DNA of 63,968 nucleotides, filler included, from Thermoplasmatota archaeon (GTDB lineage Archaea > Thermoplasmatota > E2 > JACPAO01 > JAHFTW01): NCBI GenBank assembly GCA_041623215.1. It is 5 parts of 5 records of this genome, joined end to end, with 100 filler letters (N's around TTAATTAATTAA, not from the genome) between each part and the next. Parts side by side here need not be neighbours in the genome. Positions count along the whole stretch, not along the records: positions 15,977 to 31,447 come from JBFJXH010000034.1; 4 more parts are not named here. One strand, given 5' to 3'. Position 1 is the stretch's first letter, and each line of letters begins with the position of its first letter. Below the pieces are notes generated by a model. That model saw only the letters and a list, made by a program, of their open reading frames with translations. It was not told the origin of the DNA and made no database searches. Shown in pieces: positions 15,877 to 61,755 of the stretch. The position numbers and the translations under genes were made by a program.

Positions 15877-15976
15877 NNNNNNNNNNNNNNNNNNNNNNNN
15901 NNNNNNNNNNNNNNNNNNNNTTAATTAATTAANNNNNNNNNNNNNNNNNNNNNNNNNNNNNNNNNNNNNNNNNNNN
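15877..15976. other. Artificial contig linker
   Basis: N run flanking TTAATTAATTAA. Confidence 0.99.
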
Positions 15977-20055: not shown

Positions 20056-22281
20056 TCAAGCGTCCTCGTCAAACCATGCCTCAATGCGGCTGGCTACGAG
20101 GCGCTTCTGCGCCGCCGTCAGCAAGTCGTCACTGGCTAGCGCTTCCATGAACGTTGCTCGTTCCCACTTGGTAACGCGGCCATCGTCTAGAATGCGGTGC
20201 AGTGTGGCGGCCAAGCTCATAGGCAAGAACGGGAAATCCTGTTCCAGCGATTCCAACCGACCGCCGGCAGCGCGTTGGTCAATGTGGCGCTCCAATACCG
20301 CGAATTGGCTTTCATCCAAACGCCCGGCAACCAGCAGCGTCTTGGCGTATTCGCGGCGGTCCGCCATGGCCCGGTGGAGGGACAAGGGATTGCCGCCGTG
20401 TTGGCTGGCGATGGTATCCACGTGCTGGAGTTCGCGCCGCAGCCTAGCACGCCGCCGACCCAGACGGATGGTGGCGAAGCCCGCTGCAGTCAGCGTAATC
20501 AAGAGACCTAGGACGAAGAAGGTGGATTCCTGGTGCTCCGGGGAGAAGCGGGCTTCCAGGAACGTTGGGTTGTTTGGGGCCGGTTGGCCTGGGTGAAGCA
20601 CGATGGTTTGCGTCGCTTGCTGCCCTTGTGCGTTGCGGGCGTGCACCGTGACGGTGAAGTCCTGCGCCGTGTCGTACGCGTGCTCCAATACCTTGGCCGC
20701 CGTCCAGTACGTCACCAACCCGTCGCCCCAATCGACGCGAAATTCAATGTCTGATCCCATGGATCCCGGCTGGCTTCCCGAAAGGTCCAGGGATACGGGT
20801 GTGTCCAAGGGGCCGTAGTCCCCGTTGATGGCGACGTCAATGGCGATGGTCGCGGGGATGTCGCCGTAGATGCTCACCGTCCCTTCGCCATCGGCTACGA
20901 CGAGCATGCGCTCACCGACACCGGCCAGGACGGTTGGGCCGCGTATGGCCGGGTTGGCTTGCATGGGCACCGGGTCTTCCGGCGTGAAGTCGTCGAGTCG
21001 TAGCGGCATGATGGTGTCGCGGTCTCCGCTGAAGATGTAGGATCGTCCACCAGCTGTCAGCATGGACCCGCTTCCACCGTCGTCCAGGTCGCTGGGCATG
21101 TCGGCCGCGCGCATCCACCTTTGCTGCTCCAGGCTGTAGCCGTGCACAAAGCCATAGAATGGCGTGATAACTTCGCCGCCAGCCACAATTCCGATTGGGC
21201 CATCTTGGCAGCAAAGGCCATTGCTCCCTTCCTGCGAAGGGCTGGCTTGCCCGGGAATGAAGCGGTGCGATGGATTCTGGAACGCGCCGTCAACAAACCG
21301 AGATGTGGAGAGCTGAAAACCGCGAACCGCTACCCATTCGCCGAGCACGGCGAGGGACGACTCACGCCATTGGTTGTAGACCATGGCCAATGGCGATTGC
21401 GGCGGGTCGGCCAAACTCAAAGCCCCAGCAACCGGCAGGGGGACCCAAGTGGCAACCAAGTCTCCTGTCTCTAGACTGAAGGCGTAAACCATCAGCCGGT
21501 CGTCGCCCCACCCGTGGGCGGGCCGGTCTAACACATAGACCGTATCCGCGGATACGGCCAGTCCGCCGGGCGCGCCACCGGTCCCCATATGTTCTCGATC
21601 GTCCGGATTGGTTGCATCCGGCGCGCGCTCCCAGACAAGCTCTCCGCTCACGGTGTCAAGCACATGCAGGGAATAGTGGGGGCCGACGCTTGATGTGAGT
21701 AAGGTCTGCGCAGGCTCATCCCGCCAACAAAGCACCACCAACCGGTGCTGGGTCACTTCCACCGCCGGGGGGCGGCACCACAGTTCGAGTGCATCGGAGT
21801 CCACCACCCCGGCAAACACGTCCGTGGCCCAAACCACTTGCGCCGTCGCCACATCCACGGCAACGATGCGGTTGGGGCCCACGACGAAAATGCGCTCGCC
21901 ATCAGAGGCCCAACTGTACGCGCCTTGCAGTTCATCCAGTTCGTGCCAGCGTTGCACGGCTCCGGTGGTGGGGTCAAGGCGTTCAATCCGTGGCTCAGTT
22001 GGCAGCCCCGCCCCCATGTCAGTGGCAGCATCCGCCGGATCACCTGCGGGGAACACGTAGTCTACCTGCAAGGCGTAAACGCCGGATTCCAAAATCAACG
22101 GAATGCCCCACGGTGCCCGGTCGCCGAGCAGGTCCGCACGCAATCCGAGGTCCATTGTGCTGGGTCCGGGGTCTGATGAATTACCGGTCCGCCCTGCATC
22201 CACTTGGTGTTGCAGGTAAGGCGCTGCTGCTGCCGATGGCACTAGTAGGGCCGTGACCACCAGCACGAACAAGGCTCGCAT
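20056..22281 (-). CDS. Surface protein: PQQ-like beta-propeller, PKD, TM and cytoplasmic tail
   Basis: Signal peptide; AVDVATAQVVW and LDTVSGELVWE blades; VDWGDG PKD; TM then about 125 aa tail. Confidence 0.75.
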   Translation of the reverse strand: MRALFVLVVTALLVPSAAAAPYLQHQVDAGRTGNSSDPGPSTMDLGLRADLLGDRAPWGIPLILESGVYALQVDYVFPAGDPADAATDMGAGLPTEPRIERLDPTTGAVQRWHELDELQGAYSWASDGERIFVVGPNRIVAVDVATAQVVWATDVFAGVVDSDALELWCRPPAVEVTQHRLVVLCWRDEPAQTLLTSSVGPHYSLHVLDTVSGELVWERAPDATNPDDREHMGTGGAPGGLAVSADTVYVLDRPAHGWGDDRLMVYAFSLETGDLVATWVPLPVAGALSLADPPQSPLAMVYNQWRESSLAVLGEWVAVRGFQLSTSRFVDGAFQNPSHRFIPGQASPSQEGSNGLCCQDGPIGIVAGGEVITPFYGFVHGYSLEQQRWMRAADMPSDLDDGGSGSMLTAGGRSYIFSGDRDTIMPLRLDDFTPEDPVPMQANPAIRGPTVLAGVGERMLVVADGEGTVSIYGDIPATIAIDVAINGDYGPLDTPVSLDLSGSQPGSMGSDIEFRVDWGDGLVTYWTAAKVLEHAYDTAQDFTVTVHARNAQGQQATQTIVLHPGQPAPNNPTFLEARFSPEHQESTFFVLGLLITLTAAGFATIRLGRRRARLRRELQHVDTIASQHGGNPLSLHRAMADRREYAKTLLVAGRLDESQFAVLERHIDQRAAGGRLESLEQDFPFLPMSLAATLHRILDDGRVTKWERATFMEALASDDLLTAAQKRLVASRIEAWFDEDA

Positions 22282-22413
22282 CGAACGTCCACGATGCACG
22301 GTGGTTATGGGGTTTACCGCCGGGGCCGGCGGGGCAAAAATTAGGAGAATGAGATGGAGTGGGAAAAGATGCCCGAAGGCGGTTTGTGAAGTCGCGTTGC
22401 CACGCTGCGGTGA

Positions 22414-22638
22414 TTAGCCGAACAGGGCGCCGAGGCCGGCAGCGGCAGTCGCCAGCCGTGCAAGCACGGCTCGCTTCCGCCCCTCCCGGCGCGGCTCCTC
22501 ATTCAGTGCTTAACCGAACAGGGCGCCGAGGCCGGCAGCGGCAGTCGCCAGCCGTGCAAGCACGGCTCGCTTCCGCCCCTCCCGGTGCGGCTCCTCATTC
22601 AGTGCTTAACCGAACAGGGCGCCGAGGCCGGCAGCGGC
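22414..22638 (-). repeat. 96-bp tandem repeat: three copies of the last 33 nt of rpl12 separated by two 63-nt hairpin-containing spacers
   Basis: Copies begin at 22414, 22510 and 22606; single differences at 22417 (G vs A) and 22490/22586 (C vs T). Confidence 0.95.
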
Positions 22639-22923
22639 CTCTTCTTCACTGACGCCGTCGTCCTCTTCCTCTTCGGGAGCGGCTTCGGCGGCAGGGGCGT
22701 CGCCAGCGGCGGCAGCGGGTGCAGCGGCCACAGCGGCCACAGGGGCAGCGGTGGCGGCCTCGATGGCAGCCTCGAAGTCGACGCCATCGAGGGCGGCGAC
22801 GAGGGCCTTCACGCGGCCACCGTCAACCTCAACACCAGCGGCGGTGAGGGTGGCGGTAACGGTCTCTTCACTGACTTCCTTGCCAGCGCTGTGCAGGAGC
22901 AGGGCGCTGTAGACGTATTCCAT
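22606..22923 (-). CDS. rpl12: 50S ribosomal stalk protein P1 (aL12)
   Basis: [11 protein letters not shown]; acidic linker; C-terminal [10 protein letters not shown]. Confidence 0.97.
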
Positions 22924-22941
22924 GGTTGTTTCCTCCTTGGG

Positions 22942-24045
22942 TTATCCGAACAGCGCACCCAGTCCGGCGGCTGCTTCATCTTCGGTCACTTCTTCTTCCT
23001 CCTCTTCCTCTTCAGCGGGCGCTTCGGCAGCCGCGTCACCCGAAGGTGCTGCAGCAGCCGCAGCGGCACCGCTGAGGATGCCGAGGTGGTTGGACAGGCG
23101 TTCTTTGGCGCCATCGCTGAGGTCGCCTTCGGTCTTGCCAATGCTGGCAAGCACGCGGGCATAGGCCTCGGCGGTGGCGTCTTGGTTGTCTCCCATGTCG
23201 ACGCCGTACTCGATGGCGGCGGCGACCGCCGTCTTGTAGGCGCGGGCGACGAGTTCTTCGGCCGTGTCGGCCGTGACCCACGTTGCATCCAAGGCAACGC
23301 TGTGGGTGGCGCGGTAGGCGCGACCCATCAGTTCGCGGATGGTTTGCTTGGTGGGCCAAGCGGCTGCCAAGCCAAGCTCGTAGGCCGTGCGGGCCGCGAG
23401 GACCACTTGGCCGAGCGTAGCTTCTTCGTCGATGTCCAGCACGTCGGGCGTGAACAGGGTGCCATCGTCGAAGGCCGCTTGTAGGTTGATCTTCAGCTGG
23501 ACCGGTTTGATTTCCAGCTTGGCTAGCATGGTGGCAAGGTCGTTGCTGATGACGTCGCCCGCCTTGACGGGGGTGACGGTCTTCTGAATGACGACTTTGC
23601 CAGCGTCAATCTTGGCCGGGATGCCGACCTTCTGGAATTCACCAACGATGGGGCCAGGGCCGAAGGCCGTAGGTCCCTTCTCGACGGTGATGTCGCTGGG
23701 TGAGACGGAGCCGCCCTTGGCGGGAGCCATCGTCGCGCCAGCTTCCAGTTGCTTGAACAGCTTGAAGGGGTTCATGCCGGTGGCCAAGAGAGCCACTTGG
23801 CCGTCCACTTTGTCCGTCAGTTCTTCCAGGCCAGGTCGCTCTTTGGCGGCCTCGGCAATGGCGAGACGGACGAGTCGGTTCTTGACGCCGACAATGTGGA
23901 CATCCTGGCGAAGGCTTGCACGCATCTCGGCCATTTGGGGGCCGGGAATGCCGCTGATGGTGGCCACGCCGACGACGGGGTTCTCCTTGAGGAGCTTCGC
24001 CAGTTTGGCCACTTCATCCTTCTTCCAGGGGGCGACGTGCGCCAT
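22942..24045 (-). CDS. rpl10: 50S ribosomal protein uL10 (P0)
   Basis: MAHVAPWKKDEV, GPTAFGPGP, C-terminal [10 protein letters not shown]. Confidence 0.97.
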   Translation of the reverse strand: MAHVAPWKKDEVAKLAKLLKENPVVGVATISGIPGPQMAEMRASLRQDVHIVGVKNRLVRLAIAEAAKERPGLEELTDKVDGQVALLATGMNPFKLFKQLEAGATMAPAKGGSVSPSDITVEKGPTAFGPGPIVGEFQKVGIPAKIDAGKVVIQKTVTPVKAGDVISNDLATMLAKLEIKPVQLKINLQAAFDDGTLFTPDVLDIDEEATLGQVVLAARTAYELGLAAAWPTKQTIRELMGRAYRATHSVALDATWVTADTAEELVARAYKTAVAAAIEYGVDMGDNQDATAEAYARVLASIGKTEGDLSDGAKERLSNHLGILSGAAAAAAAPSGDAAAEAPAEEEEEEEEVTEDEAAAGLGALFG

Positions 24046-31447: not shown

Positions 31448-31547
31448 NNNNNNNNNNNNNNNNNNNNNNNNNNNNNNNNNNNNNNNNNNNNTTAATTAAT
31501 TAANNNNNNNNNNNNNNNNNNNNNNNNNNNNNNNNNNNNNNNNNNNN
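31448..31547. other. Artificial contig linker
   Basis: N run flanking TTAATTAATTAA. Confidence 0.99.
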
Positions 31548-46597: not shown

Positions 46598-46697
46598 NNN
46601 NNNNNNNNNNNNNNNNNNNNNNNNNNNNNNNNNNNNNNNNNTTAATTAATTAANNNNNNNNNNNNNNNNNNNNNNNNNNNNNNNNNNNNNNNNNNNN
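46598..46697. other. Artificial contig linker
   Basis: N run flanking TTAATTAATTAA. Confidence 0.99.
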
Positions 46698-61655: not shown

Positions 61656-61755
61656 NNNNNNNNNNNNNNNNNNNNNNNNNNNNNNNNNNNNNNNNNNNNT
61701 TAATTAATTAANNNNNNNNNNNNNNNNNNNNNNNNNNNNNNNNNNNNNNNNNNNN
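61656..61755. other. Artificial contig linker
   Basis: N run flanking TTAATTAATTAA. Confidence 0.99.

Follow-up and report, generated by a model that had tools for sequence, protein, structure and literature searches.

The event closest to the one described here is the bacterial insertion with long target duplication, which has been described for kilobase-sized restriction-modification units (Nobusato et al. 2000, cited in Furuta, Abe & Kobayashi 2010, PMC2853133). In the sections of that article drawn on here, the repeats are longer than 30 bp and reach hundreds of base pairs, may overlap the 3' end of a gene and exist as a single copy at the empty site; the insert lacks a transposase or integrase, amplification through the repeats is proposed by the authors, and no archaeal case survived their screen. 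As far as those sections go, the element found behind the gene for the archaeal stalk protein P1 resembles these insertions in its direct repeats of variable length, which are single at the empty site of a relative, and in its insert (59 nt, non-coding), which contains neither transposase nor integrase. The duplication is 37 nt long in the present case and 34 nt long at another site of the same genome (contig C170), and some events in the family fall below the 30 bp of PMC2853133. The cargo, however, is a non-coding hairpin of 45–65 nt and not a restriction-modification unit, and the element is multi-copy, tied to stop codons and often accompanied by an inverted copy of the target. Judged by its sequence anatomy, it appears to be a non-coding, multi-copy counterpart of insertion with long target duplication, and this is the closest event that has been described.

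REPs, BIMEs and REPINs are mobilised by RAYT (Y1) transposases and are thought to stabilise mRNA (PMC3733652 and PMC3184786, in the parts considered). As described in those parts, they resemble the present elements in being short, GC-rich, imperfect palindromes that occur in many extragenic copies, downstream of genes and inside transcripts. However, REPs are not described there as producing long target duplications, and a Y1 transposase was found in none of the 32 genomes of the family studied here. By eye, the GTAG tag of REPs is missing from the cores, and CGTC exists on the reverse strand of only a few copies. Liang and colleagues (2015) reportedly found that REPs near stop codons affect translation.

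The MITEs, PATEs and small mobile repeats (SMRs) of the haloarchaeon Haloquadratum walsbyi (PMC3119063) are also protein-less, and for some of them the mode of mobilisation is given as unknown in the parts of that source considered; PATEs and SMRs cause no target duplication according to the same parts. MITEs have terminal inverted repeats and short duplications set by a transposase, and none is described there as tied to stop codons. In contrast, the ends of our element, GCGAAGCGA... and ...GGCGAC, are by inspection not mutual inverted repeats, no parent insertion sequence was found in searches for Y1 and DDE transposases, and the duplication measures 10–56 nt and is not fixed. Long direct repeats of variable length also accompany the insertion sequences IS1634 and IS1549 (PMC2266710), which in the part of that source considered are kilobase-sized and encode a DDE transposase, whereas the present element is about 60 nt long and no DDE_Tnp_1 match was found in the genomes richest in copies.

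Template-switch mutations are described, in the parts of PMC8794818, PMC13100816 and PMC13334657 considered, as creating or extending hairpins and as producing small inverted triplications. Such events share with the present element the origin of a stem arm from neighbouring sequence in one step, and the direct-inverted-direct order of copies. They draw on local sequence only, however, whereas here the junction between the inverted copy and the following direct copy consists of a conserved sequence common to many loci; template switching can thus explain the inverted copy but not how the core arrived. Where integrative elements and casposons use gene 3' ends as targets (PMC5137440), they keep the gene end by means of a duplicated target and form tandem arrays with common repeats, as is seen here. 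Unlike our element, they are described in the part of that source considered as duplicating a fixed length at a specific site and as encoding Cas1 or a tyrosine recombinase as their integrase. At least 15 host genes are used by the element, which is too small to encode anything, and in both respects it differs from a site-specific att element. A casposon is known at the end of the aEF-2 gene in a Thermoplasmatota archaeon.

Anatomy of the array behind the P1 gene

The window, that is, the whole stretch of 63,968 nucleotides analysed, is a chain of separate contigs of a metagenome-assembled genome (MAG) divided by runs of filler N at 15877–15976, 31448–31547, 46598–46697 and 61656–61755, and neighbourhood across these runs is therefore meaningless. 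The array is located on the second of the joined contigs, where the genes lie on the minus strand. The genes for L1 (24671..24045) and P0/L10 (24054..22942), both confirmed by Pfam, are followed by that for the P1 acidic stalk protein (22606..22923; taken from the ORF list, Pfam Ribosomal_60s, E = 3.4e-14), which is the last gene of the L1-P0-P1 row. From the P1 stop onwards, the minus strand contains a stretch X of 63 nt, a P1 tail of 33 nt, a second X of 63 nt and a second tail of 33 nt; the tail after the first X ends in GGT TAA, and the distal variant in GGC TAA. The TRF program reported a period of 96 with 2.4 copies, 97% matches and a score of 437. X consists of 21 stop-free codons in the P1 frame, both of its copies contain the hairpin AGCCGTGC-N2-GCACGGCT (22454–22471 and 22550–22567, plus strand), and a single base separates the two (C at 22490, T at 22586). 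All details of the original prediction, an in-frame 96-bp array of tail, X, tail, X and variant tail behind P1, agree with the sequence, TRF and the repeat search, except that the 33-nt tail given there as the repeat is present as part of a slightly longer repeated stretch of 37 nt.

This stretch, comprising the tail with its stop and four further nucleotides, was found three times on the minus strand by the repeat search. T1 (22602..22638) is the real gene end and is made up of the last 10 codons, TAA and 4 nt; T2 (22506..22542) is identical to it; and T3 (22410..22446), the distal copy with GGC TAA TCAC, differs from the other two at two bases. Between these copies, each of the two units contains T', an imperfect inverted copy of the tail, and a core hairpin with the stem AGCCGTGC/GCACGGCT, a CUUG loop and GAGCGA...GGCGAC flanks. 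In unit 1, T' (22573..22601, minus strand) pairs with T1 or T2 in predicted RNA folds, and the core (22538..22578, minus strand) was recognized by the covariance model R1 (51.8 bits, E = 3.7e-7) and by covariation. In unit 2, T' (22477..22505, minus strand; from sequence, repeats and folds) is one base off that of unit 1 (22490 against 22586), and the core (22442..22482, minus strand) likewise matched R1 with 51.8 bits. T3 is likely to be the original P1 end, as GGC is found in G001, a relative from the same genus, too. Since empty sites in relatives indicate that the insert corresponds to X plus a tail copy, we read the array as two tandem units of a dispersed hairpin element, with the three P1 tails as the flanks of these units.

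The P0 gene ends (22942–22974, minus strand) with the same 10-residue peptide as P1, written in other codons and located outside the repeat. The array thus copies the DNA of the P1 end and not a peptide motif.

The triplicated tail had also been proposed to yield tail-mimic peptides, or a P1 read through into a second factor-binding tail. X is indeed stop-free and in frame here, and reading through the P1 stop would give a product with a second tail at its end. However, the tail copy is in the P1 frame in only one of the six genomes with an element at P1, namely that of the window, which is about the chance level and leaves a protein-level role without support. In-frame stops interrupt read-through in G005 and G022, the copy in G019 has lost its stop, and the gene ends copied at other loci encode unrelated peptides. 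This proposal thus gained no support from the comparison, and we give it hardly any credence. A stop-free X in frame is what is expected of one in three insertions in a genome of 63% GC, and the triplicated P1 tail is, as far as these sequence comparisons go, a matter of DNA and RNA anatomy and not of protein biology.

The array was also compared with contigs (k = 31) from two DNA runs of one study; both runs are possibly the assembly's own source and thus give no independent support. The 31-mer that closes the repeat loop (22513–22543) is contained in both runs, so that a GGT-TAA tail followed by X exists in the reads. In the same two runs, the depth of the unit is only about 1.2–1.5 times that of the flanks, which suggests an average below two units, and the base specific to the first X (T at 22586; k-mers over 22554–22591) is absent from the contigs of both. 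Rarity of the variant, an origin in another sample or a mistake of the assembly could each account for this absence. From the depth together with the missing base, the unit number may vary within the population. The same two observations, and the fragmented MAG from which the sequence comes, could also indicate an artefact in which the assembler walked the repeat loop once too often. Against this stand the loop-closing 31-mer in both runs, the differences between the copies (one base in X and two in T) and the single and tandem units in independently assembled relatives, and we regard such an artefact as highly improbable.

A dispersed core hairpin between duplicated gene ends

In a search with the P1 3' region, 41 related genomes mostly matched up to the P1 stop, and the hairpin part of X was found also on other contigs of these relatives. 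The layout common to these sites is a gene stop, a short spacer, the hairpin GAGCGAGCCGYG-CTTG-CRCGGCTGGCGAC and a repeat of the last bases of the gene including its stop. A 27-nt pattern with up to three mismatches gave 16 matches in five of the 32 family genomes, whereas the reversed control gave none. In an alignment of 18 core sequences, 93% of the cells are paired and eight of the 10 pairs are changed on both sides; none of 500 shuffles showed covariation as high. With E ≤ 0.01, R1 recognized at least 40 places in at least 10 of the 38 genomes of the order searched, and all of the matches listed lie in the window's own family (f1). Among these listed matches, there are at least 14 in G019, nine in G017, six in G013, three in G021, two each in G000 and G005, and one in each of four more genomes; all of these counts are lower bounds because only the best 150 candidates per genome were scored.

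Within the window's own genome, X exists as its two local copies, accompanied elsewhere by short chance matches only, and the R1 core was found at this site alone among the best 150 candidates. No general motif was found after the stop codons of this genome. Neither an X-specific 30-mer nor the strict core had a match in the metagenome contigs scanned, and Rfam models at E ≤ 10 on 22200–23000 gave only noise (the best being microRNA models, with 24 bits against a cut-off of 197 bits). The exact core pattern, searched in one genome per species, was found at 13 loci in MAGs named 'Thermoplasmatota archaeon' and as 37 single matches in unrelated bacteria. A flank repeat surrounds none of the 37 bacterial matches, compared with 11 of 16 exact-core matches in Thermoplasmatota MAGs, and the bacterial matches are thus treated as chance.

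Most copies follow a housekeeping gene, at 0–50 nt from its stop, and share its orientation. A sense ORF with a coding-like composition (GC3 test) ends no more than 120 nt upstream of 23 of the 40 R1 matches, and six further host gene ends, missed by the filter or by short flanks, raise this to 29 of 40 by our own tally; about three matches have only an antisense ORF end near the core. At least 15 distinct host genes are involved. They include the genes for P1, L15e, S7, a class II tRNA synthetase, the small chain of ribonucleotide reductase (RNR), NuoC, GMP synthase (in G019), a glutaredoxin, an RraA-like protein, a resolvase-like endonuclease and DUF6015, and an FtsY-like gene.

A direct repeat of the upstream flank follows the core in 24 of the 40 R1 matches (p ≤ 0.005 against shuffles), several of which are units of the same arrays and hence not independent, and in 22 of these 24 the copy begins within a few nucleotides of the 3' end of the core. 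A significant flank copy is absent from the other 16. The duplicated gene end, stop included, is about 10–56 nt long and in most clear cases extends, by eye, 0–4 nt past the stop. In many copies, an inverted copy of the gene end (T') lies between the stop and the core, and the hairpin formed by T and T' terminates exactly at the start of the core. The motif GAGCG[A/C/T]AGCGA often forms the loop of this hairpin, using the GA of a TGA stop, and has GAGCGA...GCGA in common with the flanks of the core.

The expectation that X would recur in relatives between duplicated gene ends was therefore borne out. As to the proposed small element that uses the rpl12 3' end and restores it, a small element between duplicated gene ends is what we found, but its specificity for the rpl12/P1 end did not stand: the same core occurs behind at least 15 different genes, and a duplicated length that ranges over 10–56 nt differs from a fixed att site. 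A gene 3' end present in two copies is a usual mark of insertion by an integrase, and conserved sequence adjoins both copies of the repeat, so the units could in principle be the attL and attR remnants of a site-specific integrative element after internal deletion. Yet the insert of 59 nt has no integrase nearby, at least 15 unrelated targets with one common core and a variable duplication (10–56 nt) are unlike such an element, and none of the 40 R1 matches showed a long form; we hold this origin to be very unlikely.

The same comparison bears on neutral slippage, the reading under which X would be unique and the array a tandem duplication of the P1 3' end with a native hairpin, without any mobile part. 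The array is head-to-tail, and slippage best accounts for how one unit became two. As the source of the first unit it is contradicted: X recurs in the genomes of relatives, a core identical over 27 of 27 nt lies behind a different gene in another genus (G013:C41), a duplication of tail plus X would end in X and not in a third tail, and the empty sites contain no X at all. Slippage as the whole explanation is, accordingly, scarcely probable. What the distribution favours is a dispersed element.

Tandem arrays are not confined to the window. Two units each exist at G019:C152, G013:C41, G019:C189 and G019:C216, and in G017 the FtsY-like gene is followed by three (both G017:C10 and G017:C82 carry arrays). 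The largest array seen, on contig C10 of G017 (L035 / L135), is located behind the DUF6015 gene and comprises three complete 101-nt units and a partial one, a unit being made up of the gene end, a GAGCGNAGCGA loop, a 29-nt inverted copy and the core.

A scan of about 2,345 ORF ends in the window's own genome revealed one other gene-end duplication, 34 nt long. It is on contig C170, outside the window (L165:1069-1192), where the last 30 nt, the stop and 4 nt of a Tpt1-type gene (for an RNA 2'-phosphotransferase) recur 57 nt downstream. The hairpin at this site is a different one, CCCAGGG-CCCC-GCCCTGGG, and a C/T-rich tract comes after it. With the R1 core at one site and the other duplication carrying a different hairpin, movement within this genome is without support.

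Several other kinds of repeat were considered and rejected. The spacers are identical, unlike those of CRISPR arrays; a diversity-generating retroelement (DGR) or group II intron is at odds with an insert of 59 nt without reverse transcriptase (all of these from anatomy); the predicted folds, by eye, lack the two 3-nt bulges separated by 4 bp of a bulge-helix-bulge intron; and a small inverted triplication cannot supply the conserved core.

Filled sites, empty sites and the mode of insertion

The 3' flank of the P1 gene could be compared in 19 genomes, of which six are filled (G000 with two units, G001, G016, G019, G005 and G022) and 13 are empty. At the filled sites, the native C/T-rich downstream sequence restarts right after the tail copy, and the filled sites behind the DUF6015 gene likewise return to native sequence after the copy. 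The DUF6015 gene, present in 29 of the 32 genomes and encoding proteins that are 85–100% identical, has R1-type cores behind it in G017 and G019, the same architecture built around other hairpins in G007, G015, G044, G024 and G042, and an empty site in, for example, G021 and G004. Across three genera, at least seven genomes have differently built hairpin modules at this gene end. At the empty sites of P1, of DUF6015 and of G021:C94 (empty in G013 and G017), the flank repeats correspond to one copy. At the RNR gene, the flanks of the filled and empty sites are too diverged for defining borders.

At G021:C94 (L061, compared with L169 and L170), the element separates two neighbouring genes whose overlap in G013 and G017, of the same genus, is ATGA. 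The 17-nt duplication at this site keeps the stop of the first gene as well as the ribosome-binding site and ATG of the second. Both genes are thereby left intact, so that the duplication makes the insertion harmless.

The cores at P1 are more like cores behind other genes than like the P1-site cores of other genera. In G005, the P1 core agrees with the S7 core of the same genome at 32 of 35 positions, and with the other P1-site cores at only 18–23 of 35. The window core matches G019:C287 at 33 of 35 positions and, as noted above, G013:C41 over 27 identical nucleotides. This closeness of P1-site cores to cores behind other genes of the same genome indicates turnover rather than simple descent; either the P1 site has been hit repeatedly or the copies have been homogenised within genomes, as far as the core sequences can tell. 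Direct repeats permit precise loss, which fits the patchy presence.

At the P1 site of G019 (L011), it is the real tail that has unusual synonymous codons (GGT GCT CTC) and matches T' perfectly, while the displaced downstream copy keeps the codons typical of the family and has lost its stop. Such a match between T and T' would fit co-evolution or templated correction.

No mobilising partner was found among Y1/RAYT transposases, reverse transcriptases and DDE transposases. PF01797 (Y1/RAYT) gave no match in the 32 family genomes and did match in control genomes; PF00078 (reverse transcriptase) matched in only one of the 32, G006; and PF01609 (DDE_Tnp_1) matched in 15 of the 32, none of which is among the copy-rich G019, G017, G013, G021 and G000. 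The genomes searched are incomplete MAGs (65–94% complete), and these absences are thus not proof. The variable length of the duplication, together with overlaps of a few ambiguous bases seen by eye at some junctions, favours copy-choice, template-switch or staggered-break repair over a ruler-like integrase, although this is an inference from sequence.

Taken as a whole, the data are best explained, in our judgement with somewhat better than even confidence, by a non-coding hairpin element of about 59 nt that entered at P1 by target-duplicating insertion, was later doubled and now forms a 3'-UTR hairpin. The element would have been inserted directly behind the P1 stop, probably duplicating 37 nt of the target, in a transposase-free copy-choice or staggered-break event of the type of insertion with long target duplication. 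Template switching at the hairpin may later have added T' or made it longer, and unequal recombination or slippage between the tail copies is the likely route from one unit to two. The array would then be transcribed within the 3' UTR of the operon, where the long T'-core-T hairpin could protect the 3' end of the mRNA; the tail copies would have no role at the protein level.

A broader proposal is that these elements represent an undescribed class of protein-less archaeal mobile hairpins, which enter behind stop codons without a transposase, duplicate 10–56 nt, grow an arm complementary to the target and perhaps use the resulting T/T'/T RNA structure for the control of termination or decay. 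In open-access full text we found no description of small hairpin repeats that duplicate gene ends. We put this proposal forward only tentatively, and consider it rather less probable than the narrower account above.

Predicted RNA structure and mRNA 3' ends

Pyrimidine and oligo-T tracts, TCTTTTCCC and TAATTTTTGCCCC, are located behind the array (22331..22370, minus strand), and C/T-rich tracts of a similar kind are found after P1 in relatives, whether or not these carry the element. Archaeal transcription terminates at oligo-T tracts. By analogy, the tracts at 22331–22370 are likely to be the terminator region of the operon, and the array, lying between the P1 stop and these tracts, would then be part of the operon 3' UTR.

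The whole array is predicted to fold more stably than its shuffles on both strands, with z-scores of -5.9 in the sense and -4.0 in the antisense direction. In one predicted fold, T' pairs with T1 (-36.2 kcal/mol) and the stop codon lies in the apical loop; in another, T', core and T2 form one structure (-55.7 kcal/mol). Of 37 non-redundant copies in the family, 29 fold better in the sense than in the antisense direction (mean -8.5 kcal/mol, Wilcoxon 5.6e-5), whereas coding control segments nearby show the opposite preference. Mismatches of the G·U type in the T:T' hairpins are also more frequent in the sense than in the antisense direction (42 versus 18, p = 0.003; control, 158 versus 254). 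This bias points to a constraint at the level of mRNA, as judged from the sequences, and base composition or transcription-linked mutation could also lie behind it. Together, the preference for sense-strand folding and the G·U bias suggest that the element acts as RNA, and by analogy with what is thought of bacterial REPs, it is likely to be a 3'-UTR hairpin that would shield the mRNA 3' end.

Another possibility is that the structure is a selected RNA device, and not mainly a selfish insert, in which T' switches between the decoy copy and the real gene end, a pairing that leaves the stop codon within a hairpin loop, and thereby tunes termination, recycling or 3' decay in highly expressed operons. 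The two alternative folds predicted in the window, the T:T' hairpins that end exactly at the core in many copies and the G·U bias of the sense strand all fit such a device, as do the modules carried by P1, DUF6015 and the FtsY-like gene in several genera and a small hairpin at the P1 stop, with a 7-nt loop, that is seen even without the core. The covariation of this last hairpin is weak, however, T' is slight or absent in many copies, decay is seen in stops that have been lost and in T sequences that have diverged, and the distribution is patchy, as in the six of 19 genomes filled at P1. On balance we think a dedicated device of this kind unlikely, though by no means negligible, and prefer the reading of a protective hairpin.

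The P1-stop hairpin itself places the stop in its 7-nt loop as CTGTT-CGGYTAG-AACAG (CTCTT...AAGAG in G019), and was observed at L012, L016, L019, L022 and L011 in alignment A2. Its covariation score is 0.22, compared with 0.15 in shuffles, and was reached by seven of 500 shuffles.

For annotation, these elements may give rise to spurious small ORFs, to pseudo 'tail' peptides and to false calls of CRISPR-like or tandem repeats. They also show how long hairpins at mRNA 3' ends, carrying copies of coding sequence, can arise in one or two steps. If the account given here is true, archaea carry very small mobile or self-propagating hairpins that land harmlessly at gene ends, without a known enzyme, and the family would provide a non-coding, multi-copy case of the unexplained insertion with long target duplication of bacterial restriction-modification genes. 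Because a multi-copy element offers many independent events, the mechanism would be easier to study here, and the finding bears on the understanding of archaeal mRNA 3' ends.
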